Of a stretch of DNA of 64,000 nucleotides, positions 18,529 through 47,303 are shown piece by piece. The stretch comes from an uncultured Spirochaetota bacterium (lineage in GTDB: Bacteria > Spirochaetota > Spirochaetia > SZUA-6 > Fen-1364): positions 32,001 to 96,000 of the forward strand of contig CAVUXE010000011.1 of NCBI GenBank assembly GCA_963745235.1, read 5' to 3'. The translations under genes were made by a program, and so were the position numbers. The notes beneath the pieces were generated by a model, which worked only from the letters and a program-made list of their open reading frames with translations, did not search any database and was not told the origin of the DNA. Every line of letters starts with the position of its first letter. Within the stretch, counting starts at the first letter, position 1.

Positions 18529-18573
18529 ACATTATGGTAACCCGATAATCGGGGAAGGAGTACTCGCGGAAAC

Positions 18574-18819
18574 ATGGCGCTCGGCATGGAGCTCGATACC
18601 ATTACGGCTGTTGTTTTGGGAGGCACAAGCATTGGGGGAGGCAGGGGGACGATCGCCGGCACGGTCATTTCGGTGCTCATGATAGGACTTTTAAGGAACG
18701 GCATGTACGCGAAGAATATTTCGCCGGAAATCATGAAGATAGTCATAGGAGGACTTCTCATTGTGAGTCTTCTTGTGCCACGGGTCCTTGGTGGTGTAGG
18801 GAAAGCTGAGGGAAAATGA
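18574..18819 (+). pseudogene. C-terminal fragment of a sugar ABC permease
   Basis: GMELDTITAVVLGGTSIGGGRGT; the N-terminal three quarters are missing. Confidence 0.8.
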
Positions 18820-19580
18820 AGGAAGAACTGTTTGTCCAGGTGGACAAGAACCGGGCAATCCCATTTTACTACCAAGTGAGCGAGTTTATCCAAGAACTCG
18901 TTCGGAAGGGCGATATCCAACCGGGCGAGCAAATGCTCCCCGAGGAAGTGCTCGCCGAGCGGTTCGGTGTTAGTAGACCGACGATCAACAAGGCAATAGC
19001 GATCCTTGTTCGTAAATCAGTGCTTTCGAGAGAACGAGGGAGGGGCACCTTCGTGTATTCGGGAGAGGTACGGCTCACACTCATGCAGGAACTAGCGAGC
19101 CTTCACGAGGCGATGCAGAAAAATAATATCAAATTTAGGACCGAAGTGCTGAAGCTGGAGCGGCTCAGGGCGGACAAGCAAATCGCCGGCCTGCTGGACT
19201 TGAAGGAAGGCGCCGCGGTCTTCTATCTGAAGCGTCTCCGCTACGTTGAGGACGAGCCGTTTCTCATTTCCAAATCCTATCTACCGTTCACCATTTTCCC
19301 GGGGTTTGAAGAGCACGACTTCATTACGAACTCACTCTATGCAGTTATAGAAAGCCAATACGAAATTCCTGTGATTAAGACTGAACGCTTTGCGCGGGCC
19401 GTCAAGGCCCTCGATGAGGAAGCGCATTTATTCAGGATACCGCTTGGTGATCCGTTGATCCAGCTCGAAGGAGTTGCGCTCACTTTGAAGGACCTAAAAG
19501 TCGAATACTTCAACACGAAGATCCGTGGAGACCGGGGTGTGCTAAGCACCACCTTGTTAAGGAAGCGGAGGCCAGCGTGA
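18816..19580 (+). CDS. GntR-family regulator, HutC/UTRA subfamily
   Basis: PFYYQV, LP.E..LAERFGVSRPT, RGRGTFV; UTRA-like RLR..EP..SLY. Confidence 0.92.
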   Translation: MKEELFVQVDKNRAIPFYYQVSEFIQELVRKGDIQPGEQMLPEEVLAERFGVSRPTINKAIAILVRKSVLSRERGRGTFVYSGEVRLTLMQELASLHEAMQKNNIKFRTEVLKLERLRADKQIAGLLDLKEGAAVFYLKRLRYVEDEPFLISKSYLPFTIFPGFEEHDFITNSLYAVIESQYEIPVIKTERFARAVKALDEEAHLFRIPLGDPLIQLEGVALTLKDLKVEYFNTKIRGDRGVLSTTLLRKRRPA

Positions 19581-19608
19581 AAAGACCCAAGACAGGAGGG
19601 GGATGTCA

Positions 19609-20794
19609 ATGGGCGACCGAATTAGTGCGATCTATGAAATTACGCCGCAGGTAGAATCACCCGAAAGGGCGTTCGATCTCCTGCTCCACGAGATGACGAG
19701 CGGCATACAGTATTTCTCCGGCCCTGACGGGGCAATCATGGACAAAATTGTAAACCATGTCCCGTCAGTTGATCGCAGCGTTATGGGAGAAATCGTCGCG
19801 GCAGAGAAAGGAGAAGATAGCTCGTACCGCATCACTTTTTCAATTCCTGCTTCCAACCTCAACCCCGAGATGGGGGGAATAACCAATTTGTGGCCGATTG
19901 TTGCAGGAGAAGTCTTCAATTTCTACTTCATCAGGAAGGCGCGACTGCTGGACCTCAGCCTGCCCGGAATCCTTCCAAGCGCGCTACCTAGGGCCGCGCT
20001 GCGGCCTGCAGGGCATGCGGGAGTTGCTCCATGCCGGCCCTGACCCACTCTTTGGCGCGATAATAAAGCCCAACGTCGGGCTTAATCCTGCGCAAGCTGC
20101 AAAGCTTGTGCAAAGTCTGGCAGATGCAGGATTCGATTTCATCAAGGACGATGAGATTTGCGTGGACCCAGTGCTTTGCCCGCTCCGCGAAAGGGTTTCC
20201 CGCGTCGCCGAGGCGCTAGACGCCTCGGCTGGACGGTCCGGCCGCAAGCCGCTTTACATGTCAAACATCACTGTGGACTTCGCCTCCCTCCACGAAGCGG
20301 CGCGAATAGCAGCCGAGTGTGGTGCCGGGGGATTCATGGTGGATCCGTTCTGCACGGGGATGTCGACGATCGACTTTCTGCGGCGCACCTTCCCTCTGCC
20401 GATCTACTGCCACCGGGTCGGCTATGGGCTCCACAGTTTGGGCCAGACCTACAGCGTGAGCTTCGAGCTGTTCAGCAAACTCTTTAGGTTGTTGGGCGCA
20501 GACTTTTCGCACGTGGGGGGAATCTGGGGGAGCGGGGCAGATGCTAAAATGAAAACCGGACGATATCTGGAAATCCTCAGACGCCGTGTTGCTGGAGCTT
20601 TGGACAGGAATGAGACCTGGCCTGTGGTGAGCGGCATTAGCCTAGAGAATATGGAGGAGTATTATCGCTTCTACGGGGATGACACGCTGTTCCTTGAGCA
20701 TATCGATATCTACACCGACACAGATGCTGCGCGGCGCAAGATCGACGCTCTCAAGCAGCGTGTAGAGGCAGCAAAGACGGGAGCCGGGGCGTGA
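19609..20794 (+). CDS. RuBisCO-like protein (form IV), one frameshift at ~19965; about 394 aa when joined
   Basis: GP.CGLQG.R, GAIIKPNVGL, GFDFIKDDE, IYCHR, RLLGADFSH, WPVVSG. Confidence 0.85.
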
Positions 20795-21843
20795 ATGGAA
20801 AAATGAAAGCGGCGGTACTCCACGCTCCGGGGGACGTGCGGTTCGAAGAAGTACCAATCCCGGCGATCGGCCCCGAGGAAGTACTCCTGCGCATAAAAGC
20901 GGCGGGTAACTGCGGATCTGACCTGAAACGGATCATGGTGGAAGGCACTTGGGTGCTGCCATGCATCCCCGGCCATGAGTTTTCGGGAGAAATAGCCGAG
21001 GTAGGAGAAGGAGTGGAGGGGTGGAAGACCGGGGATCGAGTGACGGCCGCACCAATGCTCCCTTGCTTTCGGTGCGAGTGGTGTCTCCAGGGCCAGTACA
21101 ACCTGTGTGAGAATTATGACTACGTCGGTTCACGATCGGACGGAGCTTTCGCCGAGTACCTGAAGATTAGGGCCTTCAACCTTGTGAAGCTCCCCGATGG
21201 GGTGAGCGATGAGGCGGCTGCCATGACGGACCCGGCGGGCGTTGCGCTCCACGCTTTGCGGCGTGCGGGCGGTGTCAGCCCCGGGGAAACCGTCGCGGTG
21301 CTCGGTGCCGGACCGATCGGGATGTTCGCTTGCCAGTGGGCAGCGCTATTGGGCGCGGGGAAAGTAATCGCAACCGATATCCTCGATGAGAAGCTTGAGA
21401 TTGCCAGTGGTCTGGGTGTCCCGGTGAGGATCAATTCCAGGCGTGAAGACACGGTGGCCCGGATCATGGAAGAGACGGGCGGCAGGGGAGCTGATCTGCT
21501 TATAGAGACCGCGGGCTCAGTAGAGACCCACAGGCAGGCGCTGCTCGCGGCGCGCAAGCGTGGAAGAATTGTGCATATCGGCAGGGCGTATTCCGACGTG
21601 CTACTGACTGATGAGGTGTTCACGAAGATCTTCCGCCGGGAGCTCGCAGTATTTGGCGCCGTGAATACCAACTTCTCTCCTCACGACAATGAGTGGAAAA
21701 CCACGGTGGACTACATAGCATCCGGGAAAATCCGAGCCGAGCCGCTCGTCTCCCACCGCCTGACGATGAGCGCCGTAGGGGAAACCTTCCGCAAGATGTA
21801 CCGGCGGGAGATGGTTTACAATAAGATCATCTTCACTCCGTAA
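20791..21843 (+). CDS. Zn-dependent polyol(-phosphate) dehydrogenase (GatD/sorbitol dehydrogenase-like)
   Basis: CGSD, GHEFSG, CxxCxxC..C, GAGPIG. Confidence 0.9.
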   Translation: MNGKMKAAVLHAPGDVRFEEVPIPAIGPEEVLLRIKAAGNCGSDLKRIMVEGTWVLPCIPGHEFSGEIAEVGEGVEGWKTGDRVTAAPMLPCFRCEWCLQGQYNLCENYDYVGSRSDGAFAEYLKIRAFNLVKLPDGVSDEAAAMTDPAGVALHALRRAGGVSPGETVAVLGAGPIGMFACQWAALLGAGKVIATDILDEKLEIASGLGVPVRINSRREDTVARIMEETGGRGADLLIETAGSVETHRQALLAARKRGRIVHIGRAYSDVLLTDEVFTKIFRRELAVFGAVNTNFSPHDNEWKTTVDYIASGKIRAEPLVSHRLTMSAVGETFRKMYRREMVYNKIIFTP

Positions 21844-21859
21844 CGTTGAGAGGTGAATC

Positions 21860-22913
21860 ATGGAGGCCGTGTATTTGAGAGGCGTCGAAGACGCTGTCGT
21901 GACGACCGTGCCTGATCCCTGCATTCCCGGCCAGGGAATTCTGGTTCGGGTGGAGGCGTGCGCCGTGTGCGGCACCGACGTTAAGATGTATCGCCACGGC
22001 TATGCCGCGGCGAAGTTTCCCCTCATTCCCGGACACGAGATCGCGGGTAAGATCGAGCGACTCGAAGGGAACTACCCTAGGACTCTCTGTCGGAATGCGC
22101 GTGGCCATTGCGCCGAACATTCCGTGCGGCGTGTGCCAGTATTGCAGGGACGGGCTCCAGACGGCCTGCGATTCCCTTGAGACGATCGGCGTGCACCGCG
22201 ACGGCGGTTTTGCCGAGCTCTTAGTCCTCCCCGCGCACGCGGTGACAGCAGGCTGCGTCTTTGCTATCCCAAAAGGGGTTGCAAGCGAGGAGGCGGCGCT
22301 TATCGACCCGGCCTCCTGCGCTGTGAATGCTTGCGAATTGTCCCACGTGAAGCCGGGCGATACTGTTGTTGTCGTTGGCGCTGGTCCCGCCGGATGCCTG
22401 TGCGTGGAGGTGAGCAAGGCCTTTGGTGCGCGCTTCACTATCCTTATCCAGCGCTCGTCTGCACGTCTTGAGCAGGCGCGTTTTACAGGCGCGGGACTTT
22501 TCATCGACTCCTCTCGCGAAGATGCGCTTGCGAAGGTTCGCGAAGCCACCGGGGGCAGGGGGGCTGACGTAGTGATCGTTGCTGCCGGCACGGCCGAAGC
22601 TCAAGAGCAGGCTATGCAGATGGTAGCCAAGAGAGGCAGTGTAAACCTCTTCGGCGGCCTACCCAAGTCGAGCCCGACTATCCGCCTTGATTCAAACCTC
22701 GTGCATTACAGGGAAGTTTCCGTCGTGGGCACCCATGGGAGCTCCAACAGGCACTGCGCAATCGCTCTGGACATGATCGCTGACAGGAGGATAAGGGCCA
22801 GCAACTACGTAAGCAGGCGGTTTGCCCTTAGCGAGTTTCCGTCAGCCCTTGCAGCTGCAGAGAGCAAGACGGGGCTGCGGATGTTCGTCAATCCTGGGCT
22901 GGCTGGTCGATGA
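21860..22913 (+). CDS. Zn-dependent dehydrogenase 2, frameshift ~22068
   Basis: CGTD, PGHEIAG, CGVCQYC..C, GAGPAG. Confidence 0.85.
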
Positions 22914-23014
22914 GAGTAATCCTGGTCCGCTGCGGCGAGATGGGCCTGAGGAGAGAGGGATTGGGCAAAAAGAAGTCTGCCGGACTTGACGACGAAAGGC
23001 GGCTTAGGGAATGA
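22910..23014 (+). pseudogene. 34-aa remnant of a histidine phosphatase
   Basis: MRVILVRCGE resembles MRVVLVRHGQ at 11721; ATGA overlaps at both ends. Confidence 0.55.
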
Positions 23015-23976
23015 CCGAAATAACCTTAGGAATCAATACCTGCTTCGCGATCGGCCGCTACCCAGAACCGGAAGAATGGATGCGTGTCGTCACGGACGAG
23101 CTGGGGCTCTCTCACGTCCAGTTCTCGTTCGACTTGGTTGACCCTGTCATCGTCGACTGGGATACCGTTGAAAGAAAATGTAGGAAAATTGCTGAGCTTG
23201 CTCAGCAGAGAGGGATTCGCATAGACACGGCCACCACGGGCGAGGTCCCCCATAAATCTAATGCTCTCCTCGATCCTGATCTTGCAGTCAGGCGCTCCTA
23301 CCTCCGCTGGTACGAAAACCTCATACGGGCAAGCAGCATCCTGGGCGCCGAAGGCTCTGGGGTCTATCTCGGAACCCTGAGCAGCAGGGACAACGGGTCC
23401 GCCGAGCGGCGCGCGTACCTCATCTCCGTTCTCATGGAGGAGATCGAGCACCTCACGGGAATAGCGAAGAGCGAGGGTCAAAAATATTTCATGTGGGAGC
23501 CGATGTCTGTCCCCCGGGAGATCCCCTGCACCATTAGCGAAACGCGAGAGCTCCTCGAGCGGGCAAACCGCAATTCGCAGATACCAGTGTTGCTCTGTTT
23601 GGACGTTGGCCACGGTTGGATCCGTTCCCCTAATCCGAGCGATCGAGACCCGTACGAATGGCTTCGAGAGCTTGCGCACTTGTCTCCCTCTATCCACATG
23701 CAGCAGACCGACGGTAAAGGTAGCCGGCACTGGCCGTTTTCTCCCGAGTTCAACGCTAAAGGTATCATCGCTCCTGAAAAGGTGTTCGCCGCTCTGGAAC
23801 TATCTGGCGCGGAGCGAACGATTATTGTCTTTGAGTACTTCTTCTCTGCGCATGCACTCAGCGAAGACACGGCGATAGCCGACATGCGCACAAGCGTTCA
23901 GTACTGGAAGGAAGCTCTTGGCGGTTCTCATCGCGCAGGTAGAGCGGGGAGGGAAGGGCGGCCGGCAGCGAGGTGA
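23011..23976 (+). CDS. Sugar-phosphate isomerase/epimerase TIM barrel (EryC-like branch)
   Basis: LGINTCFA.GRYPEP, WEPMS..RE.P, LDVGH, IHMQQTDG..RHWPF. Confidence 0.75.
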   Translation: MTEITLGINTCFAIGRYPEPEEWMRVVTDELGLSHVQFSFDLVDPVIVDWDTVERKCRKIAELAQQRGIRIDTATTGEVPHKSNALLDPDLAVRRSYLRWYENLIRASSILGAEGSGVYLGTLSSRDNGSAERRAYLISVLMEEIEHLTGIAKSEGQKYFMWEPMSVPREIPCTISETRELLERANRNSQIPVLLCLDVGHGWIRSPNPSDRDPYEWLRELAHLSPSIHMQQTDGKGSRHWPFSPEFNAKGIIAPEKVFAALELSGAERTIIVFEYFFSAHALSEDTAIADMRTSVQYWKEALGGSHRAGRAGREGRPAAR

Positions 23977-23982
23977 GACCGC

Positions 23983-25492
23983 AATGAGCCTGATGGGAAT
24001 TGACGTGGGAACCACTGGTTGCAAGGGCGTGGCTTTTGATGAGAGGGGGACAGTTCTTGCATCGGCGTACAGAGAATACCCACTTATCCAGCCCAAGGAA
24101 GATTGGGTAGAGCTTGACCCGCAACTTATTTGGCAGTTGTTAAAAGAGACTCTACGAGAGGTGAACGCGCAGCTTTCCGCGGACCCGGTGCAAGCAATCG
24201 GTGTCTCCTCTCAGGGGGAGACTGTCACAGCGCTTGACGATCGGGGAAACAATCTCTGCAATTTCATCGTCACTTTCGACAATCGGACTATTGAGCAGGT
24301 CTCGTTCTGGGAGAAAGCACTCGGCCGCGACGCAGTCTACCGGATAACCGGGATGCCCCTTCATCCCATGTACTCGATCAACAAAATTCTTTGGATAAAA
24401 AAAAATCTTCCCGACGTTTTTGCGCGAGCGCGCAAGTTCACCCTCGTCGAGGACTTCGTCATTTCGCGGCTTTGCGGAGAGTACGGGATCGATTTCTCCC
24501 TTGCCGCGCGAAGCATGGCTTTTGATGTCACGCAGGCAAAGTGGTCTGCGGAGATTCTCGCTGCCGCCGGGGTGGAAGAGCGCTTCCTCTCCCGCGCGGT
24601 GCCGTCGGGTACAATCATCGGATGCATGCGCCGTGAGCTCAAGGACGAGCTTGGCTTCAAGCGGGAGGTTTCCATTGTCACCGGGGGGCATGATCAGCCC
24701 TGCGGTGCCCTCGGAGCCGGCATCACGGGGGCAGGGATCGCGATGAATGCAACGGGTACAGTTGATGCTATCTGTCCCGTGTTCAGCGACTTACAGTTTT
24801 CCCCTCAGATGCTTCAAGACAACTATGCGGTCTACCCTTACACGATGCAGGGACTGTATTGCACCATCGGTTTTAACCTTACCGGCGGCCTACTCTTGAA
24901 GTGGTACCGGGATACTCTTTGCGCCGAAGAAGTCCGTTGGGCTAAGAACAAAGGCATGGGCTCGTATGATATGATCCTTTCTCGCATGTCGAGTTCCCCA
25001 AAGGATATCTATGTACTGCCTCATTTTGTTGGGTCGGGCACCCCGCAGCTTGACCCTCTTTCAAAAGGGGCAATCATCGGGTTACGGATCTCCACTACCA
25101 AGGAGGATTTGACGCGAAGTATCATAGACAGCATCAACCTTGAGATGAAAATAAACATCGAGCGAATGCGGGCGAACGCAATCCCTATACGCGCCATCCA
25201 CGCGGTCGGAGGCGGCGCCAAATCAGACCTCTGGCTTGCACTTAAGGCGAGCTGTTTTGGGGTGCCTGTCAGCCGACCCAGGACCGAGGAGGCGGTTTCC
25301 CTTGGCGGGGCTATCCTTGCAGGATATGCCACCGGGCGCTTTCAGGGTGTTGCCGAGGGGGCGAAGGCAATGGTTGCCATCCAGGATACATTCGAGCCGC
25401 AGGAAAAGCTCGTAGCTTTGTATGATGAGAAGTTCGCTAAGTTCCGGGAGCTTTATCCAACGCTCTCGCAGCTCAATAGGAGTTTGGAATGA
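23983..25492 (+). CDS. FGGY-family carbohydrate kinase
   Basis: GIDVGTTGCK, SSQGE, GGHDQ, GGGAKS. Confidence 0.92.
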
Positions 25493-26225
25493 GGAAGCCG
25501 TCCTTCATCGGACCCATGCACAGAAGATTCCGCAGACAAATCCGCGACTTGGCGGCGGCGAGCGTTCGTCTTGGGGAGCTGGGTTTCGCGTCCTCCCGCG
25601 GGGGCAACCTTTCCTGTCGTGCGGATGATGGCTGTTTGCTGATTACCCCGACCGGCTTTCGGAAGAAGGAAGTCCGCCCAGAGGACATACTGGTGGTGAG
25701 GCCCGACGGAAGCACGTGGGAAGCACGCCCGGGGCTTAAGCCTTCAAGCGAGGCGCCTGCCCATATGCACATAATGCGTTCCCGTCCGGATGTTCAAGCG
25801 ATTATCCATGCTCATCCACCGGTTTTAACGGGTTTCGCCCTCGCGGGGGTCGATATTCTCTAAAACCCATCCATCCTGAGCTTGTCATCGAGGTCGGCCC
25901 CGTGATCAACCTTGACTACACCGAACCAACGTCGGAGAAGCTTGCACACCAGTTCGATAGTGTCATACTCAGCGCCAACGCCTTCCTGATGGGAGGGCAC
26001 GGGGTTATGATCTGCAGCCCGGTTGGAATCGAAAGGGCACTGGAACTCCTGGAAATGCTTGAGACGATAGCATTTTCGGCATGGGTCGCGATGTCCGTGG
26101 GAAAGCCGAAAACGATTCCCGCCGCTGAGCTAGACGCGTTGGAGCGCATCATGCGCACGCGCAACCTTACTATGCCGGGCGCGTCGGCCGGCTGGAGCCT
26201 GCGGAAGCTGTACGGGACGAACTGA
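25489..26225 (+). CDS. Class II aldolase/adducin family protein (FucA/RhaD/AraD-like), frameshift ~25860
   Basis: GGNLS, ITPTG, PSSE..H, IIHAHP, GHG. Confidence 0.85.
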
Positions 26226-26416
26226 ACCGGAGAAGAGGGGAATGAATTTGCTTTGATTAAGGATGACCTGTAAAATGCGAATGGAGAAAAGGTGAGGAAA
26301 AGAGTGATTCGACCAGGCAAGGTTCAAGCGCAGTATTGAGACCATCTTTTGGAATTGTTTAGGTGCGAGTCGTGCGATTAGTGGGGCATTAATACAACGA
26401 ACAAGGGAGGAAAAAG

Positions 26417-27415
26417 ATGAGACCTATCAGATTCGCGTCGGGGCTCCATGTCTTTGGAAGTACTGCAGACCGCTATGTCCTCAGCGGTTATAAGCCGCAG
26501 GTACCAATATCTGAAATGATTCAAGGGGCGGCAAAGGTGAAGGGCTTAAAAGGCGTCGAACTTGTCGAGACGTGGCATATCAATAGCGAAAACGTAGACA
26601 AGGTGCTGTCAGAGCTGCAGGCGTCCGGATTACAACTTACCCTCCTCATGCCCGATCTCTGGGCTTCTGGCAAATGGGGAATGGGAAGCTTTGCTGCAGG
26701 GAACGAGAAGACACGCAGGGATGCTATTGAAACGGTCAAACGCACGATGGACATGGCGGCACGCACAGGCTGTAATTTGATCAATGTGTGGTTGGGGCAG
26801 GATGGTTACGATTATCCGCTCCAAGCCGACTATTTGAAGGCGTGGGACTGGATCGTTGAAGCCTTAAGAGAATGCGCTGATCATAATCCCAAAGTCACAA
26901 TCGGGATGGAGTATAAAATCAAAGAGCCGAGAACCCATTGTTTTATCGGAACAATCGGTAAGCTGCTCTTGCTGATGGACAAGGTGAATCGGAAGAACCT
27001 GGGCGTCATTCTAGACATAGGACATGCTCTCGAGGGATATGAAAACATGGCGGAATCCGCCGCGTTGTGCAAGTATTTTGGCGACCGGCTTATCCATCTC
27101 CATCTCAACGACAACTGGCGATCCTGGGACGATGATATGATGGTGGGGTCCATCCACACAATCGAGCTTTTGGAACTCCTGTACTGGCTAGAAAAAATCG
27201 ACTTCCGGGGGTGGTACTCGCTGGACATCTTCCCCTACAGAGATGATTCAATCGCCGTAGCCTCAGAGAGCCTGAACTGGATAACGGATCTGCGCAGGGT
27301 GATCGATCACATTGGATTGGACAGAATCGAGAAAGTCATCGCAAGTGGCGACGCTGCCCAGGCATCCCGCTTGGTGAGAGAGGGCATGTTCTCTGTGTCG
27401 GAGCATAAGAAATGA
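26417..27415 (+). CDS. Xylose-isomerase-like sugar isomerase (resembles the apiose-isomerase-type branch)
   Basis: DRY..GY, WLGQDGYDYP.Q, EYK.KEPR, DIGH, NDNWRSWDDD, LDIFPYR. Confidence 0.8.
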   Translation: MRPIRFASGLHVFGSTADRYVLSGYKPQVPISEMIQGAAKVKGLKGVELVETWHINSENVDKVLSELQASGLQLTLLMPDLWASGKWGMGSFAAGNEKTRRDAIETVKRTMDMAARTGCNLINVWLGQDGYDYPLQADYLKAWDWIVEALRECADHNPKVTIGMEYKIKEPRTHCFIGTIGKLLLLMDKVNRKNLGVILDIGHALEGYENMAESAALCKYFGDRLIHLHLNDNWRSWDDDMMVGSIHTIELLELLYWLEKIDFRGWYSLDIFPYRDDSIAVASESLNWITDLRRVIDHIGLDRIEKVIASGDAAQASRLVREGMFSVSEHKK

Positions 27416-27643
27416 ACTGTACGCTTGGAAGAAATCGGTCCAAAGCGGGAAGGAGGGATCACCGGTTTTTACCAGGGTGACTTTAGAAAGGGGCTGTGTG
27501 AAAGAGCAGAAAGGAGGGCAATAGTAAGACCATGAGGGTCGCGCTGAAGCGTTACATAAGCGTGACAAGGATTCCAATCACTCGGTTGGTTTGCGGCTGC
27601 ATCCGCCGACACTGAGTGCAAGCAAGAACGAGGAGGACGATCG

Positions 27644-28690
27644 ATGGGTAGGATGGTAAGAACGATCCTTCTGGCAGGACTCGTGCTTCTAATTGCATGT
27701 GGGGGTGTGTTTGCCAGCGGGAAGGGAGAAGCGACTAAGACAGCGGCAATCACTATCGGGTACTGCTCGCCAGAACTTGACGCCTTCCAAGCAGGGGTCA
27801 TGTACAGTGTGATGCACTACGCCCAGGCAAAGGGCTGGGCGGTGATTCCGGAAGACGCCAACACAGATCCGCACCTACAGGCGAACCAAGTAGAATACCT
27901 GATTTCCCTGGGTGTGAAGGCGATCGTGGCGGTGCCGTGCGATAGCCAGGCATTCTGCGCTTCAATTGCAAAGGCTCGCCAGGCGAACATACCGGTGTAT
28001 ACGATCGACCGCGCTCCGATTGGGTGCAAGGTCAATATGGTCGTCCAAGCCGATAACGAGAAAGGCGGCACTGACTCCGGGACCGAGATCGTGAAGTTCC
28101 TGACGCAAAAATACGGAAGCCCGAAGGGCACTGTGTTGGAGCTGCAGGGAGAGATGGCCGAGAACGTGGCGCAGCTCAGGCACAAAGGCTTTATCGATGT
28201 CATGAACCAATATCCCGACATTAAGGTCACTTCAAAGACAACCCACTGGGACTCCAACCAGTTCTATCAGGACGCCATGGATGTGGTCGGCTCCCAAGCT
28301 ATTGATGCGATCTTTCTGCACTCCGACACCGTAGGCGGCACGCCGGTAACGCAGGCCCTCACCCAGCTCGGCAAGTTGGTTCCCGCGGGCCAGCCCGGGC
28401 ATATCTACATAGCTGCGATCGACGGGTCGCCGAATGGCCTTGACCTCATCCGCAAGGGTTCTCTCGACCAGACCTCCAGCCAGCCAAATCCCGATTTCGG
28501 CATTCTCACCGAATATATCGACAAAGAGTTCAAAGGCGAGAAGATCGTGGCGGGTCCAGTAGTGAAGGAGGGAGCCCTGTGGTCGCCCGCGAAGATCATT
28601 GACTCCGACGTTGGGCCAATGCTCGAGCTGGCCACAACGGACGTCACGAAGGCCAATGTCGATGACAAGCGCCTTTGGGGGAACCACTAG
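27644..28690 (+). CDS. Sugar ABC substrate-binding protein
   Basis: Signal peptide, IPVYTIDR, V.ADN..GG, AAIDG. Confidence 0.9.
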   Translation: MGRMVRTILLAGLVLLIACGGVFASGKGEATKTAAITIGYCSPELDAFQAGVMYSVMHYAQAKGWAVIPEDANTDPHLQANQVEYLISLGVKAIVAVPCDSQAFCASIAKARQANIPVYTIDRAPIGCKVNMVVQADNEKGGTDSGTEIVKFLTQKYGSPKGTVLELQGEMAENVAQLRHKGFIDVMNQYPDIKVTSKTTHWDSNQFYQDAMDVVGSQAIDAIFLHSDTVGGTPVTQALTQLGKLVPAGQPGHIYIAAIDGSPNGLDLIRKGSLDQTSSQPNPDFGILTEYIDKEFKGEKIVAGPVVKEGALWSPAKIIDSDVGPMLELATTDVTKANVDDKRLWGNH

Positions 28691-28810
28691 AAGCCGGTAA
28701 ATCGGCAACATGCCGGGGGCGAGCTGCGATAATCTCTCAGCCCGCCCAGCTTTATGAGATTTGAAGTCCTGCTTCTGTGGTTAATCGGACATGAGGAGGA
28801 TCGGCAAGCC

Positions 28811-29862
28811 ATGGAAAGAGATCGTACAACATCCTTTTTTGTTGCAATCATAGACAACCTCATTTGGGTTATCGTTATTGTCGCTTTCGTTGTTTTCTCC
28901 CTGCTGTCCAGTCGGTTTCTTCACTCTTTTCAACCTGGTGAATATCCTGCCGAGGGTGGCTGCGCTTGGTCTCCTGGTCATCGGCCAGTCCTTTACAATG
29001 ACAACCGCGCACTTCGACCTCTCTTCCGAATCGACCCTCGGCTTAACCGCAATGGTGGGGGCGCTGTTTGTCGCCACCACAAACTACGGCGGGCTTGGGA
29101 TAATGATGCCCCCCGGTTTCGCCATCGTCTTGATGATTCTACTCGGGTTGCTCATCGGAACCTTAAACGGCTTCATGATTACGAAACTGAGAATGAACAA
29201 TCTCGTAGCGACGATCGCCATGCTGATCCTCCTCCGCGGCGTTGTGTGGATCCTTTCCCCAGGAAAGAGCGTGAGCTTTCTCGGGCCCGTGTTCGACTGG
29301 ATCGGGGGAGGAGTTCTTTTCACGATTCGGGCAGGCGGCAAGCCTACCGGTGTGCCGGTAAGCTTCTTTTTCGTGCTGGTGGCTTTTGCTTTCGCGCACA
29401 TCGTGACCCGATACACCCGATTCGGCCGGCACATGTACGCTATCGGCTCCAACCGTGAAGCCGCGGAGGCCGCGGGCATCCGGACCCAGCGGGTCATTTT
29501 CTCGGTATATGTGATTAGCGGCGCTTGCGCTGGCGATTGCGGGTCTACTTGAAGCCGGGCAGAGGAGACTCTGTCGTAGGCGGGCTCGGCCAAGGTTGGA
29601 TTTTTCAGGTACAGGCGGCGGCCATCATCGGAGGGATCAGTCTGTTCGGCGGCAGGGGGAGCATGCTGGGTGCGCTCGGCGGCGTCCTTTTCTGGGGCAT
29701 TCTGGAGTCCGGTTTGAGCATCATGCAGGCCAGTCCTTACTCTATCAACGTATTCCGAGGCGGCTTCTGCTTCGTCGCTATGATGCTCGATGCTTTGAAG
29801 ACCCAATACCTCCGCACTCTTTCAGCGCACCAGGTTGTTCGCCCGATCGACGATCGGAATAG
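28811..29862 (+). CDS. Sugar ABC permease with several frameshifts (end approximate)
   Basis: FDLS, FGRHMYAIGSNREAA, AAIIGGISLFGGRG across frames. Confidence 0.75.
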
Positions 29863-29907
29863 CGGATTTGAACAACCTGGGGTAGGCGAGAAAAGAGAGA
29901 AATCCTT

Positions 29908-31440
29908 ATGGAAACCACAGTGCCAGCAACAATTGTCTCACTGCGCGGCGTGAGCAAGTCCTTTCCAGGCGTAAATGCCCTATCGAATGTGGACCTCGAC
30001 GTCCACCAGGGCGAGGTGCATGGTCTCGTAGGAAAAAACGGGGCCGGCAAATCGACACTCGTTCGTGTGCTCATGGGACTGCACGAGCCGGACAGCGGCT
30101 CCTTGGAGATAAATGGCCACCGCTTCTCTCGCATCACCGCCAGTGAAGCTTTGGCCGCAGGAGTCGCGTACGTTCCCCAGCACGTCAGCATGATGGACAG
30201 TCTTGTCGGTGGCCGAGAACATTCTTGCGGGAGAGATGCCAGTCGGTGCTTTCAGGTTGGTAGAACTGGAAGAAGGTGTATGCTCAGGCAGCGGACAGAC
30301 TCGAAAAGCTCGGCCTGGACCTGGACGTTCGAAAGAATGTTGAAGGGATTAGCGTCGCCGAGCAAACGATGCTTGCAATAGCGCAGGCGCTCTTCCGCCG
30401 GGCGAAACTCATCATTTTGGATGAGCCGACCGCTTCGCTTCCTCGGGCTGACATCGACCGTCTGTTCACTCTCATCCGTTCGCTCAAGAGCCAGGGAGTT
30501 GCAATTGTATTCATTTCGCACCATTTGGAAGAGGTTTTCGAGATCTGCGACCGGGTGACCGTGCTTCGCGACGGCTAGCCAGATCGGAACCTGGCCTCTC
30601 TGCGGAGCTGGACCTGCAACGCTGACAAAGGTAATCGTGGGAGAGAATATCCATGAGTATGTAAGAGAGTCAAGGGAAAGAGCGCCGGAAATCTCGCCAT
30701 GCAGATCAGTGGATTGACACTTAGGGGGTCACTACGAGGACATCTCGCATGGATATCGCCAAAGGCGAGGTTGTCAGCGTTTGTGGGCTGCAGGGCTCGG
30801 GAGCCGAGGCGTTGGGCGAGAGGCTCTTTGGTCTGGAGCCGAGGGGGATCGGAGCGTGTCCGAGTAGACGGCAAGGAGTACACGGCAAGGAATCCCAAGG
30901 AGGCCTTTGCCCAGGGAGTCGCCTTGCTCCCGCAGGATCGGTACCGCTTCGGGATTGTCGGCTCTGCGGCCAATCCGGGAGAACATCACTTATTCCATTC
31001 TGGACCAGCTGACAGGATTTCTCTCTATCCTTAAATCGGTCAAGGAGCGTCAGTTGGTGAAAGATTTCATCGAGAAGCTAGGTATCGTCACTCCAAGCCA
31101 GAACCAAAGCGTAAGGCTCCTGAGCGGCGGGAACCAGCAAAAAGTGGTTTTTGCCAAACTTGCCTGTACAAGACCAAGCGTGCTTATTCTCCACGATCCC
31201 ACTCAGGGCATCGACGTGCGCGCCAAGCTGGACATCTATAGGGTGATCGACGACCTAAGTGCGCAGGGCATTGCGATTCTTATCATTTCGACTGAGGTGC
31301 GCGAGCTTGTCGGGGTGTGCGACCGGATCCTCGTCATGTACGAGGGTCGTATAACCCACGAGTTCAAGAGGGGGGACGCCGATACGACACCGAGCAACAT
31401 TTTGCTGGCAATTGAGGGAGGCCGTCATGCGGGACAGTAG
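29908..31440 (+). CDS. Sugar ABC ATPase with multiple frameshifts
   Basis: GKNGAGKST, ILDEPTA, LSGGNQQKV, PTQGIDV. Confidence 0.8.
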
Positions 31441-32444
31441 GGTCGATTGGGTGAAGCTTATCCTAGACCGATTCCTTTGGTTGGTGATTGTGCTAATCGC
31501 CCTCTTTTTTGTGTGGCGAGCTCCCGGCTTTGCTACCGGAGTGAAACTTCGTCAACCTTCTCCTTCATGCCAGCGTGCTAGGGCTCCTTGTCATCGGACA
31601 AAGCATCTGCCTGCTCAGCGGTAATTTCGACCTCTCCATCGAAGGCAACATTCAACTGGTTGCCGTACTCGCAGGGTGGATGATGGTCCCTGCCGTAGGG
31701 TTCGAGGGCGGGGGCGGCTGGGTGCTCTCACCCTTTATGGTCATTCCAATAGTGCTCGTGATGGGCGGGGCTGATCGGAATGCTCAATGGCCTGATGATC
31801 ACGCGGCTGGGGATGAACAACTTCATTGTGACTCTGCGCAATGCAGCTGGTTCTCGGAGGGATTGCTTTCCTCATTAGTCGAGGGTTTGACATTAACCGC
31901 ATTCCTGCTTCCTTCTCGTGGCTAGGCAGCCACGCTTTCGGTCACATCCCAGTCCAGATAATCTTTACCGCTGTGGCCTTCATCGGGTTCCAGCTTTTCC
32001 TTGGCGCGTCCCGTTTCGGCCGTCAGCTCTACGGGGTCGGCGGAAATCGGGACGCGGCCCGCGCCTCCGGTATCGATCCGAGAATCCGTGATCACAAAGG
32101 CGTATATCTTGAATGGCATGATCGTCGCCATAGCTGCGTGGATGCTTCTCGGTCGCGTCGGTCAGGCCAACACGAGGATCGGGGTCGGAATAACACTGGA
32201 AGCGGTGGCCGCTGCAGTGATCGGTGGGGTTGCGCTCAGCGGCGGCTACGGATCGGTGGGAGGAGCCTTCGGCGGGGTGCTCCTTCTCTCCGTGATCGAT
32301 AATGGCCTGAACCTGATGAGCGTGAACGCCTTTTGGATTCAAGGTATCCGAGGCTTCATCATCCTGCTTGCTCTTTTCATCGAAGCACAGAAGTTCCGTT
32401 ATAAGCCCCGGGTGCATATCGATATCGCGACCGGTGCCACATGA
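31427..32444 (+). CDS. Sugar ABC permease with several frameshifts
   Basis: GNFDLS, FGRQLYGVGGN..AA, AAVIGGVALSGG. Confidence 0.75.
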
Positions 32445-32485
32445 ATCTTCTGTTCAGGAGCCCCTGCCACAAGGAAAGGTGAGTC

Positions 32486-33644
32486 ATGGCGACAAACAGT
32501 AAAGCTGTCAAGGAAAAACTCAAAGAACAGAGGATAGGGACCCCGACATGGGGGTATGGTGACGCCGGGACGAGGTTTCACGTTGTGCATCGACAGAGCT
32601 CTCCCCGAACACTGGAGCAACGGCTCGACGATGCCGCCGTTGTAAATCGGCTTACCGGCGTGTGCCCGGCCGTCGACCTACACACCGCATGGGACGCAGA
32701 GCGACGACTGGGGCAGGGTTAGGCGATACGCTGCCGATCTCGGCCTTGAGATTGGCGCGGTCAATCCTCACCTCTTCAATGAGGACGACTATGTTCTTGG
32801 GACCGTTTGCAACCCGCTCCAGCGAGTCCGGGAGAAATCGGCGGAGAAGCTGCTTGAGGGTGTACAGATCGCCAGGGCGGTCGGAGCCAGGATTCTCAGT
32901 CTTTGGTTTGCCGATGGGACCGACTATCCGGGCCAGGACAGTTTCCGCTCACGGCGGAAACGCCTCCACGAGGCGCTTGCCAGGGTCTATGCCGCGATGC
33001 CCGCCGAAATGAGCATGGTGGTCGAGTACAAGCTTTTCGAGCCTGGCTTCTACCACATGGATCTTGCCGACTGGGGCGGCTCCTACGTGCTCTGCCTGGC
33101 CCTGGGAGAGCGGGCGAAAGTCCTCGTGGACCTAGGGCACCACGCCCTGGGCGCGAACATCGAGCAAATCGTGGCGTTGCTACTTGGCGAAGGCAAGCTC
33201 GGAGGGTTCCACTTCAACGACAAGAAGTACGGGGACGACGACCTTACCGTGGGTGCGATCAATCCCTACCAGCTTTTCCTAATCTTCTGCGAGCTGGTCT
33301 CCGCCGAGGCGGACGCCGACACGCGGCAGTGCGCCCGGCAGGCGGCCCTCATGATTGATGAAAACCACAACTTCAAGAACGCGCTGGAAGGGACGATCCA
33401 GTCCGTCGAGGCGCTTCAGGTGGCATACGCCAAGGCGCTGCTCGTCGATTACGGATACCTAGCCGAGATGCAGGGCAGGGGAGAGGTCATCCGGGCGGAG
33501 GAATGCATCAAGGATGCATTCCTTACAGACGTGCGTCCCCTTCTACGAGAGGTCAGGACGGAGATGGGGCTGAACCCGGATCCCCTGGACGCCTTTCGAA
33601 GGAGCGGCTACATGGAAAAGATCACGCGCGAGAGAAGCTGTTAG
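32486..33644 (+). CDS. rhaI: L-rhamnose isomerase (RhaI type), frameshift ~32700
   Basis: TPTWGYGDAGTRF, EYKLFEPGFYH.D..DWG, VDLGHH, GFHFNDKKYGDDDL. Confidence 0.85.
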
Positions 33645-33704
33645 TCAGGGGCAACGGCGAAGCTTTGCATCGGCACGGAATTGATTTCAAACAGGAGGAG
33701 ATCG

Positions 33705-33797: not shown

Positions 33798-35005
33798 CAA
33801 GAAAAGACTCATTCAACCTGGACCGTCACCAGGCTCCCCCTACGATGAGCAGGGAGGAGCTGGAAGGGAAGCTCGCCCACCTGCGCATGGTCCTGGAGCG
33901 CAGGGGCCGCGAGGCGATCCTCCTGAGCCAGGAAGGGGCGTTGCGCTGGCTGACCGGCATCCGGCACCAGATCGTCGACATTGCCCCGGACGCGGAAAGT
34001 CCGGTCAGCGCCTTTGTGCGCCTTCGCCCGGGGGCCACGGAGCTGACGTTCGTCACCACGCGCATCGAGATGCCGAGGATTCGAGACCAGCTGCCCGAGG
34101 TCTTCAGCGGAGTCACTGGCGTGACGATCGACTTCCGGCAGTCGCCTCTTGTGCCGCCTGCCAACGCGCTCGTTCCGGGGCGCGATGGCTACGACGAGGC
34201 GCTGTCGGAGATCGTTCGTCCCCTTCTTGGCGGAGTGGAAGGAAACCAGCTTCAGAAGCTGGAATGGCTGTACGCGATGACGCAGGCCGTGCTCATCGAG
34301 ACCGCCTTGGGGCTTGGGCCTGGAATGAATGGCGCTGAAGTAAGAGGGCTGCTGCTCAGCAACCTCGCCGCACATGACGTGGAAAGTAATCTTATCCTCG
34401 TCGCTCTTGCTGGCCAGGAAAAGCACTTTCATCCATCATATAGCTCGCGCTACCGGACGGAGCGCGGCTGTTGGGTAAAGCTCGTAGCCGGCGGACGCTA
34501 TGCCGAGCTAATCGCGTCGACAACGGTCATGGTCAGAATTGTATCTTCCCCATCGCCGGAAGAAGCCTGCGCATACGCGGCGCTCCAGCGCGGCACCGTG
34601 GAGTATGCCGATCTGTATTGCAGCGACGCGATCGAGTCGGAAATGTACACGGCCGTGGGAAAACGCTTCCTGAAGATCGAGAAGGAAACGGGGCTCAAAG
34701 GCTTTCAGCCGTCAGCCTATTTCCACCACATGGGCGGGCCGACAAGTCCCCTGGGAAACCGCGACTACCTCCTGGAGCCTGGAGGCTCGCACCGGATGTT
34801 TCCCTGGATGCAGTTCGCCATCAATCCCTGTGACGTGCTCCAGTATACGAAGGTGGAGCTGCAGGGCATCGTCATGCCCGAGGGCCCCCCGCGGATGCTC
34901 GATGGGTCGCGCTTCGTGTCGCAGGACCTCGGGCTGTTCTCCGAGGTGCACGCCCAGGGCGGTACAGTTGCTAGAGTCGCCAATATCGTCGAAGCTCGCG
35001 GGTGA
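33794..35005 (+). CDS. M24 (creatinase/prolidase)-fold protein with a non-canonical active site
   Basis: N-terminal LR..L...A.LL....LRWLTG; IEMPRI; HP; YFHHMGGPT..RDY; FAINP. Confidence 0.6.
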   Translation: MTRKDSFNLDRHQAPPTMSREELEGKLAHLRMVLERRGREAILLSQEGALRWLTGIRHQIVDIAPDAESPVSAFVRLRPGATELTFVTTRIEMPRIRDQLPEVFSGVTGVTIDFRQSPLVPPANALVPGRDGYDEALSEIVRPLLGGVEGNQLQKLEWLYAMTQAVLIETALGLGPGMNGAEVRGLLLSNLAAHDVESNLILVALAGQEKHFHPSYSSRYRTERGCWVKLVAGGRYAELIASTTVMVRIVSSPSPEEACAYAALQRGTVEYADLYCSDAIESEMYTAVGKRFLKIEKETGLKGFQPSAYFHHMGGPTSPLGNRDYLLEPGGSHRMFPWMQFAINPCDVLQYTKVELQGIVMPEGPPRMLDGSRFVSQDLGLFSEVHAQGGTVARVANIVEARG

Positions 35006-35296
35006 GAGCGTGTCGACAAGACCTATGACGCATATGCACAGGCGGATGCGCTGGTCACTATCATGGGCGAGCTCATGGCGGGGCAGCAGGTTCAGGGAGT
35101 GCACTTTGTTCCGGGACGCGTTGCGACTCCAGCGAACATCGAGGACCTGCCGGGTGTTTGGGCACGGGATAATCACGACTGACAAGCGCCCCATGGGGTT
35201 GCTGCATTAATGCGGCCGCGGCTGCCTCGCACTTTAATGAGCAGACACACGTGGGCTGCGATCAAATGGGCGAGCAGGATCAGAGTGGGTCAATTC

Positions 35297-35800
35297 ATGA
35301 GAAAGTATCGCGTAGAGCTGCTGACTTTCTCCGATGGGCGTGGATACCAATACGAGCAACTTCTGCCCATTAACAGGGACTACCAGCGGCGCGTAAAAGA
35401 GGCAATCGAGGGAACCGGGGAAACAACGGTCATCGAAGGGCGAGAGATCATCGGGAACAACGCAACCCCTCGCGTGGAGGCCAGCCGGATCGAGCAAGCT
35501 GGCGTTGATGTGGTCATCTTCAACTACGCTATTTGGTGCTTTCCCCACCTCTCTGCGATCGCAGCTAAGGCTGATTCCTCTCCCGATCCTGCTTTTCTCG
35601 AATCTAAACCCCTCGGAGCTATGCATGGTGGGAATGCTTGTAAGCGCAGGCACTATGGATCAGCTTGTAAGCGCAGAGGAGTTGCTTTCAAACTTCCCCT
35701 GTAACCAAATTCACGGAGTCTACGGAGATTTCAAGGGAAATGATCGCGGTTGGAAAAATCATGAGGATTGAAACCCGGCTTTTCGGCACCGGTCAGAACA
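35297..35800 (+). pseudogene. Internally deleted second copy of the fucose-isomerase-like gene
   Basis: MRKYRV.LLTFSDGR..NYAIWCFPHLSAIAA is nearly identical to 6045; jumps from MDQL straight to FPCNQIHGVYGD. Confidence 0.85.
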
Positions 35801-35830
35801 CATCCCTCGCCGGAATAAGAGAGGATTCGA

Positions 35831-36697
35831 ATGATGAATAAGGTGGGAATATATTATGCGTACTGGGAACACAACTGGGACGCAGATTTCGTGCCCTACC
35901 TTTCAAGGGCGAAAGGACTGGGTTTTGACGTTCTGGAGATCAACGCAGGAACCCTTGCGACGCTCAGCATCTCCGAGAGGAAGCGACTTCGCGCCGCCTC
36001 TCTTGAGACCGGGGTGCCGATGAGTTGCTGCTTTGGGCTTCCGCCCTCCTCAGATATGGCCTCCTCCAACCCCGGGGTGAGGAAGGCAGGGCTTGCGCAC
36101 CTCGGCCGGATCGCCGACGCCATGGTGGACTGTGGCATAGATCGCCTGACAGGCCCAATTTACTCTTGCTGGCCTGGCACGCTCGAGGGACGACAGGGTA
36201 GTAAGCAGCAGGCGCTCGAATGGAGCGTCGCCGGAATGAAGGAAGCAATGAAGAAAGCTGAAGACCTTGGTTTTACGTACCATCTGGAAGTGCTGAATCG
36301 CTTCGAGCAGTTCCTCCTGAACACGGCGGAAGAGGCGGTCGCGTATATACAACGTGTTGGAAGCCCAAGCCTCAGGATTCTCCTTGATACATATCACATG
36401 AATATTGAGGAGGACAGTTTTGAGGGAGCGATCAAAACTGCGGGGAAGTTGCTCGGTCACCTCCACACAGGAGAGAGCAACCGCAAGCCACCCGGCCGTG
36501 GCCATATTCCATGGAAGGAGATAGGCTCGGCATTGAAGGAGGTCAGCTTTGATGGATGGGTCGTCATGGAACCTTTCCTCATGCCCGGCGGCGAGGTCGG
36601 TCGGGACATTCGGGTGAACCGGGAATTAATGCCTCAGGCCGACCTCGACGCTGAGGCACGCAGGGCGTGCGCTTTTACGAGGGAATTTCTCAGCTAG
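35831..36697 (+). CDS. D-psicose/D-tagatose 3-epimerase family protein (copy 2)
   Basis: Close paralog of 7492-8358 with the same catalytic motifs. Confidence 0.9.
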   Translation: MMNKVGIYYAYWEHNWDADFVPYLSRAKGLGFDVLEINAGTLATLSISERKRLRAASLETGVPMSCCFGLPPSSDMASSNPGVRKAGLAHLGRIADAMVDCGIDRLTGPIYSCWPGTLEGRQGSKQQALEWSVAGMKEAMKKAEDLGFTYHLEVLNRFEQFLLNTAEEAVAYIQRVGSPSLRILLDTYHMNIEEDSFEGAIKTAGKLLGHLHTGESNRKPPGRGHIPWKEIGSALKEVSFDGWVVMEPFLMPGGEVGRDIRVNRELMPQADLDAEARRACAFTREFLS

Positions 36698-36899
36698 TGA
36701 GACTTGATTCGGACAGCTTCATTATCCTCCTCCGGCGAACGAGATCCGACTGAAACGGGAGCGCCTCTTCAAAACAGACATTTTTGTTGCACAGCCAACG
36801 GCGTAGTGCTGACACCATCCTCGAGAGCAACTAGGGCAACAAGGTTTGTTCAAGTTAGGGGACCTTCTCCGTCCGCGGAGCACATTAATATTAATGTAC

Positions 36900-41838: not shown

Positions 41839-41842
41839 GACT

Positions 41843-47300: not shown

Positions 47301-47303
47301 TGA

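Follow-up and report, generated by a model that had tools for sequence, protein, structure and literature searches.

A RuBisCO-like protein of an uncharacterised clade and its conserved gene neighbourhood in an uncultured Spirochaetota bacterium

Introduction

The solved roles of RuBisCO-like proteins (RLPs) are those of enolase, 1,3-isomerase, decarboxylase/transcarboxylase, and oxygenase, according to the excerpted text of one account (PMC10176493), and, going by excerpts of this literature, each solved function revealed unexpected chemistry together with a new pathway. Here we describe an RLP gene and its neighbours in a 64,000-nucleotide stretch of DNA, called the window throughout (contig CAVUXE010000011.1, positions 32,001 to 96,000, of assembly GCA_963745235.1), from an uncultured Spirochaetota bacterium. 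The source genome (G000) is a metagenome-assembled genome (MAG) of 104 contigs that is 85.7% complete. With moderate confidence, we regard the locus as a real conserved operon around a form IV RLP of an uncharacterised clade, in which the breaks of the reading frame are mostly indel errors and the RLP would enolise a keto or diketo monophosphate.

The RLPs of apiose catabolism, OiaC and OiaX, were reportedly identified in 2018 by Carter and colleagues as a 3-oxo-isoapionate-4-phosphate decarboxylase and transcarboxylase/hydrolase, and a DUF1537-type 3-oxo-isoapionate kinase (OiaK) and an apionate oxidoisomerase are said to be encoded beside them. They resemble the window RLP in the RuBisCO large-chain fold and in their setting, a sugar catabolic operon in which an oxidoreductase and a kinase would yield a phosphorylated oxo-substrate. 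The window clade differs in having an FGGY or UPF0261 kinase, not a DUF1537 kinase such as OiaK, in its partners, which are two Zn-dehydrogenases of the MDR type and a histidine phosphatase, and in its hosts, which are anaerobe-type Spirochaetota and Aerophobetes MAGs.

The RLP of methionine salvage, MtnW/YkrW, is a 2,3-diketo-5-methylthiopentyl-1-phosphate enolase that works with MtnX, a phosphatase of the HAD family. Common to both systems are an enolising RLP (as proposed here for the window) followed by a phosphatase, and the conserved KDDE Mg2+ site. The phosphatase of the window clade, however, belongs to the histidine-phosphatase family and not to the HAD family of MtnX, and none of mtnK, mtnA, mtnB, mtnX, and mtnD is found among the annotated genes of 18.5-37.1 kb. 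The initial annotation, made from the letters of the window, had likewise seen neither rbcS nor methionine-salvage genes; there is indeed no PF00101 (rbcS) match in the 85.7%-complete genome and no mtn gene in the cluster, but the genome does hold one mtnA homologue, its only mtnA match, on another contig (C54). A search for phosphoribulokinase gave two weak PF00485 matches elsewhere in the genome (68.7 and 55 bits), in a family that also covers uridine kinases.

The 'DeepYkr' RLP of Rhodospirillum rubrum is a 5-methylthio-D-ribulose-1-phosphate 1,3-isomerase. It moves a carbonyl along a ketose monophosphate via an enediolate, which is the mechanistic model that we favour for the window RLP, whereas its context is sulfur and isoprenoid metabolism rather than dehydrogenases and a kinase; the two are likened by description only. 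The closest solved structure by sequence is PDB 3nwr, a structural-genomics entry for an RLP of Burkholderia fungorum (164 bits; 141 bits for the window piece). It shares the KPN, KDDE, and HR motifs, with a TM-score of 0.82, but is only ~28-45% identical over the aligned core and has retained the loop-6 Lys (GLAGK), in place of which the window reads GIWGS. Because no function is stated for 3nwr, it gives no annotation. The D-hamamelose pathway of Ochrobactrum anthropi includes an RLP oxygenase (Kim et al., 2018, as quoted in citing text). This RLP, too, ends a branched-sugar route with dehydrogenase and kinase steps, but it needs O2 and a bisphosphate, while the window offers a single kinase, a changed P1 site, and hosts of anoxic habitats; this comparison is again by description.

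The RLP and its operon

Pfam and NCBIfam scans of the window place all genes between 18.5 and 37.1 kb on the + strand. The order in the operon is GntR, RLP, ADH1, ADH2, TIM barrel, and FGGY kinase, as follows; the identities refer to the intact congener G002.

18816..19580, + strand: GntR-family regulator with a UTRA effector domain, intact (Pfam GntR 55.8 bits, UTRA 107.1 bits; 76% amino-acid identity)
19603..20794, + strand: RLP, ~396 amino acids, split (PF00016 112.1 bits on the C-terminal piece, cut-off 30.1)
20791..21843, + strand: Zn-dependent MDR dehydrogenase 1 (ADH1), intact (Pfam ADH_N and ADH_zinc_N; 84% amino-acid identity)
21860..22913, + strand: Zn-dependent MDR dehydrogenase 2 (ADH2), split (Pfam matches on both pieces; blastx residues 1-72 and 54-345 in two frames)
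23011..23976, + strand: divergent xylose-isomerase-like TIM barrel (TIM2), intact (PF01261 46.9 bits; 75% amino-acid identity); no NCBIfam family matched
23984..25492, + strand: FGGY carbohydrate kinase, intact (FGGY_N 228 bits, FGGY_C 115 bits)

The top NCBIfam model of ADH1 is galactitol-1-phosphate 5-dehydrogenase, with 264.7 bits against a cut-off of 550 (253-265 bits when the orthologue is included), and xylulokinase is the closest family for the FGGY kinase (XylB model, 311.4 bits against 380.25). All gene families listed by the initial annotation are present and co-oriented, although the cluster does not end at 33644 as it had proposed but continues to ~37105. The overlaps between genes that it described are partly genuine, since the ADH1 start overlaps the RLP stop by 4 nt; because frames are broken, some of the apparently overlapping genes are instead the two halves of one gene.

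Read across its break, the RLP aligns collinearly with the intact 396-amino-acid protein of G002 (residues 1-121 and 121-393, 69-71% identity). As judged by sequence and predicted fold, it is a form IV member of the RuBisCO large-subunit superfamily. The AF2 model of the G002 RLP (pLDDT 92.5) has the full two-domain RuBisCO fold, with a TM-score of 0.86 to the type III RuBisCO of P. horikoshii, and a look-up in the ESM Atlas returned generic 'RuBisCO large subunit family' clusters only. A search of 5.8 billion proteins found 88 RLP clusters at >=48% identity, all from metagenomes or MAGs, the few named ones being Spirochaetota; beyond these, identity falls to 36-37% (two sequences) and then to <=34%. 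In a FastTree phylogeny made solely of database hits, the 117 of >=330 amino acids (4 of 121 were shorter and excluded), the 85 core full-length sequences form one clade with a support of 0.93, and the two sequences at 36-37% are its sister. An intact relative, the database protein P0007 (394 amino acids), is 95.7% identical to the C-terminal piece of the window RLP, and G002 carries a second paralogue of 417 amino acids (locus L037, G002:C62) that is 67-72% identical.

The scores of the G002 orthologue against the NCBIfam models lie far below the cut-offs: 157.7 bits against 438 for PRK04208, 146.1 against 497.45 for rubisco_III, 98.2 against 489 for PRK13475, 121.5 against 409 and 109.2 against 513.6 for the MtnW models PRK09549 and TIGR03332, and 145.8 against 700 for the OiaX model NF042437 (134.5 bits for P0007). 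P0007 likewise reaches no curated RuBisCO or RLP family. The nearest named outgroup, the 418-amino-acid RLPs of Rhodobacterales (30-34% identity), is OiaX-like but below the cut-off (376-393 bits). The RLP clade is, on these scores, outside every curated or characterised family tested (top scores 146-158 bits against cut-offs of 438-700), which agrees with the reading of the initial annotation. Among the known RLP roles, the sequence test failed for the two families that have curated models, and the partners differ; the earlier remark that the partner set is unlike those of methionine salvage and of the apiose RLP pathway is also upheld.

Conserved neighbourhood

A locus search over 185,579 species genomes gave 127 pattern matches, 20 of them confirmed, which correspond to 19 loci, 18 in the RLP clade. 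The open reading frames (ORFs) of these loci were clustered and representatives were scanned with Pfam; counts downstream of the RLP refer to the 14 loci with >=2.5 kb beyond it. The clade loci come from Spirochaetota, including Spirochaetaceae and Spirochaetales, from Ca. Aerophobetes (four), from one Clostridia MAG, and from one unclassified MAG. A literature search, which left most subscription journals outside its reach, turned up no publication that describes an RLP in these taxa or with this set of partners.

In 12 of the 14 loci, the next two genes after the RLP are MDR dehydrogenases (L037 has a single one). A His_Phos_1 phosphatase/mutase, which at loci other than the window lies between ADH2 and TIM2, is present in 9 of the 14 and the TIM2 barrel in 8, and a kinase, either FGGY or UPF0261, is found near the RLP in 10 of the 18 loci. 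The conserved core is thus the RLP and two dehydrogenases; the histidine phosphatase and TIM barrel usually accompany it, and a kinase often does. A UTRA-type GntR regulator stands over the module in many loci. The minimal unit, RLP-ADH-ADH-FGGY, occurs in an Aerophobetes locus (L027) and in the Clostridia locus (L029), where it is followed by an unrelated ECF sigma factor and efflux genes.

The FGGY kinase of the window's orthogroup is beside the RLP in four loci (L023, L024, L027, and L029). In six others (L031, L033, L034, L035, L038, and L039), a UPF0261 gene is directly upstream of the RLP and is itself preceded by a PEP-hydrolase-like TIM barrel and, in five loci, by a formyltransferase-like gene. 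We take UPF0261 and the PEP-hydrolase-like TIM barrel to correspond to both halves of the Tm-1-like architecture of plants. That an RLP is associated with this triad of formyltransferase-like protein, TIM barrel, and UPF0261 appears undescribed. Kinase activity of a UPF0261 domain was demonstrated for MarK, according to the excerpted text of PMC12624787.

Synteny is conserved for the core across Spirochaetota, Ca. Aerophobetes, and one Clostridia MAG, but not for the ABC transporter, the aldolase, and the rhamnose isomerase (RhaI) that the initial annotation had drawn into the same pathway. It is only in the window's genus (G000, G002, and in part G001) that the CUT2 transporter, class II aldolase, RhaI, psicose epimerase, and M24 protein adjoin the RLP, and the loci outside the genus have CUT1, MFS, or TctABC transporters or none. 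Among 40 relatives searched, RLP orthologues of >=60% identity occur in two, G001 and G002, the latter with two copies; its second copy (L037) has a further CUT2 ABC system immediately before it and just one of the two dehydrogenases behind it. The shares of sequencing runs by habitat were all <=0.20, and habitats are given here as the record labels state them.

Catalytic residues and proposed reaction

Residues were compared by alignment to the RuBisCO of T. kodakarensis (1geh) and by conservation in 47 clade sequences. KDDE, with the activator Lys and the metal ligands, is invariant in 47/47, and in the window piece it aligns to the KDDE of 1geh. The HR motif and the following His, H(327), are also invariant in the 47 members. 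The first Lys of KPK is kept, and the second is replaced by Asn (KPN) in 47/47. Opposite the Gly-Gly P1 site, the alignment shows LE/DHIDIY, and the Gly-rich C1-phosphate site of RuBisCO is thereby replaced. The RLP does not have the complete set of catalytic and phosphate-binding residues of RuBisCO forms I-III. The roles of the residues and their spinach numbering (Lys175, His294, Arg295, and His327) are those which we presume for the RLP equivalents. As far as an alignment can tell, the pattern fits an active Mg2+-dependent enolising enzyme on a monophosphate, not a carboxylase.

On this basis we propose the following route. The kinase would phosphorylate a C4-C6 ketose or polyol, and at loci without the FGGY enzyme a UPF0261-type kinase may stand in for it. 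The two NAD(P)-dependent Zn-dehydrogenases would then oxidise the phosphorylated compound to a keto or diketo monophosphate; the oxidation of a polyol phosphate is suggested by ADH1, which is nearest to a polyol-phosphate dehydrogenase. The RLP would enolise this monophosphate through its carbamyl-Lys/Asp/Glu Mg2+ site and the equivalents of Lys175, His294, and Arg295/His327, and the outcome would be migration of the carbonyl or tautomerisation, with C-C cleavage less likely. In the simplest case, the carbonyl would be moved, as by the R. rubrum RLP. The histidine phosphatase/mutase and the TIM barrel would carry the product towards central metabolism, and a possible further step in this genus is its cleavage by the class II aldolase-family enzyme.

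Several observations weigh against this proposal. Its chemistry is entirely what we infer, as is the order of steps in the initial annotation. The RLP of L036 has no adjacent dehydrogenase, and no kinase is seen near the RLP in L030, L032, L036, and L037 (L025 and L028 are truncated upstream). The window operon itself has no gene for the histidine phosphatase that is present in 9 of the 14 loci. Finally, the loop-6 Lys, which most of the clade keeps (IWGK), is Ser or Gly in this genus, the window reading IWGS.

We considered whether the RLP could instead be a beta-keto-acid phosphate decarboxylase or transcarboxylase like OiaC/OiaX, acting on a 3-oxo sugar-acid phosphate made by a dehydrogenase. 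The OiaX model is among the three top NCBIfam matches, the Rhodobacterales outgroup is OiaX-like, and the succession of dehydrogenase, kinase, and RLP resembles the apiose pathway; in addition, a GFO/IDH/MocA oxidoreductase is directly upstream in two Aerophobetes loci. The OiaX score of 145.8 bits is, however, far under the cut-off of 700 and no better than that of type III RuBisCO (146.1). The kinases are FGGY or UPF0261, with no Pfam match to the DUF1537 family among the annotated neighbours scanned, the dehydrogenases are of the MDR polyol type, and the genus lacks a conserved loop-6 Lys. Weighing these, we find an OiaC/OiaX-like reaction unlikely.

The second alternative models the locus on the Bacillus methionine-salvage core, working on a deoxy-sugar: a kinase first, then an MtnB-like dehydratase of the class II aldolase family, the RLP as a diketone-phosphate enolase, and the phosphatase in the place of MtnX. 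A kinase is present, the RLP and the phosphatase are adjacent in 9 of the 14 loci, and the aldolase-family protein weakly matches the MtnB models (70.5 and 66.6 bits). Yet the MtnW models give 121.5 and 109.2 bits where 409 and 513.6 would be needed, the aldolase-family gene occurs only in this genus, mtnA is on another contig, and the two invariant dehydrogenases have no role in such a scheme. We judge it very unlikely.

Returning to enolisation of a keto or diketo monophosphate, we suggest, tentatively and as something rather less than an even chance, that the clade catalyses a reaction new to the RuBisCO superfamily, with a keto or diketo polyol monophosphate from the two Zn-dehydrogenases and the FGGY/UPF0261 kinase as the substrate. 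If true, this would be a new anaerobic route by which peat and sediment Spirochaetota and Aerophobetes break down a sugar or polyol, and it would give the first sugar-related role to a UPF0261 kinase. The hosts are uncultured bacteria of peat, soil, and sediment, and rare sugars and polyols of plant origin are plausible substrates in such places. The clade offers a compact, testable module of four to six genes, with intact orthologues available for expression. Because several RLP clades are still unassigned, we regard it as a good experimental lead and not as a first-order surprise.

Frame breaks

Breaks were called from ORF lists and blastx against the intact congener G002, with base-level alignment to G002 for the indels. 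The RLP is read as two ORFs (19603-20043 and 19898-20794) owing to a single surplus base in the run cccgg near 19963. ADH2 is split by one extra base near 22078, the class II aldolase-family gene by one missing base near 25861, and the rhamnose isomerase by a single frame change near 32698. The transporter genes are broken more often, with at least five breaks in permease 1, at least eight in the ATPase, and four in permease 2. Alignment of the transporter block to G002 (86-93% nucleotide identity) shows 17 single-base and 2 two-base insertions in the window and 5 one-base deletions; most of the insertions are outside homopolymers, and several of the deletions pair with a nearby insertion and are probably alignment artefacts. 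Indel counts for the genes at 72-77% nucleotide identity are alignment noise and were left unused.

Breaks of this kind are found throughout the genome. Even rpoB is in three pieces, with model positions 987-1162 (176) in a frame other than that of the flanks, and rpoC is spread over three different frames of the same assembly (G000:C73:99187-106818). When CUT2 ATPase paralogues were collected by tblastn with intact G002 proteins (>=60% query cover), 15 of 71 lay in more than one frame and 7 more had an internal stop, and 4 of the 14 FGGY paralogues are broken genome-wide; the paralogue grouping is crude and merges adjacent permease genes, and only the ATPase and FGGY rows were used.

Close relatives, in turn, are intact. 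Contigs from two peat-metagenome runs, X1 and X2, are 91-97% identical to the window over pieces of 1-3 kb, and they omit exactly one base at 19963, 22078, 29534, 29557, 29773, 29834, 29906, 30203, and 30262. At 25861 a C is inserted behind this position in X1, with no such insertion in X2 or in a third run, X3. One X2 contig has 15 gaps over 29029-30715. The orthologous cluster is intact in G002 and partly so in G001, at 61-94% amino-acid identity.

We weighed these breaks against the possibility that they are real, the RLP operon and above all the ABC transporter being decaying pseudogenes in a rearranging island. Two observations tell against assembly error. The short X3 contigs are 100% identical to the window and keep its state at both break sites that they cover (25861 and 30203), and if X3, whose library type is not on record, is a short-read run, the indels at these two sites are real. 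X3 may, on the other hand, consist of the same sort of data as the input of the MAG assembly. Moreover, the density of breaks over 28.8-32.4 kb is about one per 200-250 nucleotides, roughly ten times as high as in rpoBC (4 in 7.6 kb) or in the RLP operon, and real decay of the transporter is possible because this density is so high. Signs of rearrangement (the rve integrase at 14976-16202, the recombinase fragment at 36704-37105, the permease remnant at 18547-18789, and the FucI fragment) and the absence of the histidine phosphatase gene between ADH2 and TIM2 also speak for decay. On the other side, the essential rpoB and rpoC have breaks of the same kind, 21-31% of the 71 ATPase paralogues are broken across the genome, and relatives at 91-97% nucleotide identity are intact at the break sites. 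Pseudogene decay in bacteria is deletion-biased. The spectrum here is almost entirely of +1 insertions at non-repeat sites.

We hold decay to be rather unlikely and the breaks to be mostly artefacts, because rpoB and rpoC are broken too, because breaks occur genome-wide, and because close relatives are intact. The breaks in the RLP, ADH2, and aldolase-family genes are very probably assembly artefacts rather than pseudogenisation; those of the transporter block are probably so as well, with less assurance. A frame break in this MAG is no evidence for a pseudogene, since even rpoB and rpoC are broken, and the initial annotation's concern that the RLP might be a true pseudogene loses much of its ground, given in addition that X1/X2 and P0007 are intact. 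Indel errors being genome-wide, pseudogene calls in this genome need read support.

Recoding, or quadruplet decoding at the +1 sites, was also considered and dropped; the inserted bases and their flanks have no common motif.

The surrounding sugar island

The operon in this genus is in a rearranging 'sugar island', which adds the aldolase, the CUT2 block, the rhamnose-type isomerase, and the psicose epimerase. The features around the operon are as follows.

18547..18789, + strand: C-terminal remnant of a CUT2 permease (blastx 73% identity, residues 277-357 of a 366-amino-acid ORF of G002:C62)
25489..26225, + strand: class II aldolase / epimerase / decarboxylase family gene, split (PF00596 95.3 bits on the N-terminal piece; blastx residues 1-127 and 115-243 in two frames)
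26417..27415, + strand: second xylose-isomerase-like TIM barrel, intact (PF01261 111.2 bits; 94% amino-acid identity to G002)
27644..28690, + strand: CUT2 periplasmic sugar-binding protein, intact (Peripla_BP_4 138.9 bits)
28811..32444, + strand: permease, double ABC ATPase, and permease, all broken (Pfam on fragments)
32486..33644, + strand: L-rhamnose isomerase homologue of the Gram-positive type, with one frame change (TIGR02635; blastx in two frames)
33809..35005, + strand: M24-fold (creatinase/prolidase-like) protein, intact (PF00557 21.6 bits, below the cut-off; 69% amino-acid identity to G002); no NCBIfam family matched
35210..35704, + strand: fucose-isomerase-like (FucI) fragment, N-terminal domain only (PF07881 42 bits)
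35831..36697, + strand: D-psicose 3-epimerase, intact (NF051856 350 bits, above the equivalog cut-off of 300)
36704..37105, + strand: C-terminal fragment of a tyrosine recombinase (PF00589 32.5 bits, model positions 119-170 of 172 only), the right edge of the island

The permease remnant is the counterpart of the CUT2 permease directly upstream of the second RLP copy in G002. The G002 orthologue of the aldolase-family gene is far under the cut-off of every NCBIfam subfamily. The ligand of the binding protein is not assignable, because its top NCBIfam match, RbsB, reaches only 70.5 bits against a cut-off of 337. For the rhamnose isomerase, the C-terminal piece alone gives 291.7 bits with TIGR02635, whose cut-off is 531.35; the intact G002 orthologue (69-79% identical) is just above it with 540.1. 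Because RhaI (in G002) and the epimerase (in the window) pass equivalog cut-offs, the two could form a separate rare-sugar route.

The TIM barrel at 26417..27415 is the first gene of a mobile transporter block. This block (TIM isomerase, binding protein, permease, ATPase, and permease) precedes M24-GntR-RLP in G002, whereas the window has it between the aldolase gene and the rhamnose isomerase. The nucleotide identity between the window and G002 is 80-93% for the block and 72-77% for the RLP operon. From this comparison, the block at 26417-32444 looks like the subject of a recent exchange or relocation between lineages.

These observations bear on the initial annotation's reading of 18816-33644 as one pathway, in which the ABC transporter would import a branched or rare sugar on which the RLP and then the class II aldolase act. 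The genes are co-oriented, and the same gene set is found within 20 kb in both the window and G002. Contigs from related strains also span the junctions of the aldolase with the TIM isomerase (25479-27420) and of the permease with RhaI (31982-33737), so that the arrangement is stable within the species. Outside the genus, however, the CUT2 block, aldolase, RhaI, and epimerase are beside the RLP in 0 of 16 loci; the transporter block has changed sides between G002 (upstream of GntR) and the window (downstream of the aldolase), with an identity that sets it apart from the operon; and the scores of RhaI and the epimerase are high enough for the equivalog models of known rare-sugar enzymes. A single pathway over these 15 kb is improbable. 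What travels together is only the RLP, the dehydrogenases, usually the histidine phosphatase and TIM barrel, and often the kinase; the conserved RLP module is real, and the single-pathway reading is only partly supported.

The histidine phosphatase that the window operon lacks has a frame-shifted His_Phos_1 paralogue at 11721-12417, which shares, in its two frames, 53% and 45% identity with the histidine phosphatase of the G002 RLP operon and adjoins a gene of the inositol-monophosphatase family (10855-11724). This may be the displaced partner of the window's RLP operon.

An ORF for an rve integrase is located upstream of the cluster, at 14976-16202; together with the FucI fragment and the recombinase fragment, it is a sign of mobile-element activity around the island. 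The X1/X2 contigs join 35009 to 35816 with 153 other letters between, which indicates that the related strains are without the FucI fragment. Between 18000 and 37500, promoter-like sites numbered 12 (7.8±3.0 in shuffles) and terminator-like sites 20 (17.5±4.5), neither giving usable operon boundaries.

Elsewhere in the window, a nucleoside uptake and hydrolysis cluster is encoded on the minus strand at 37878-48423; it is seemingly intact and unconnected with the RLP cluster, and comprises two IU-nucleoside hydrolases, a Bmp/PnrA-type binding protein, an ABC ATPase, an M20 peptidase, and a GATase1-like gene. A further CUT2 ABC ATPase at 55989-58614 (G000:C11:89083-90560) runs over two frames, with ORFs at 55989-57095, 56357-57529, and 57454-58614. 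A second, intact CUT2 sugar ABC system (permease, ATPase, permease, and binding protein) is at 1138-8358, and after it come a fucose-isomerase-N-like gene (5949-6884) and a psicose-epimerase-like TIM barrel (7321-8358), the latter 53% identical to the G002 epimerase over its last 117 residues.

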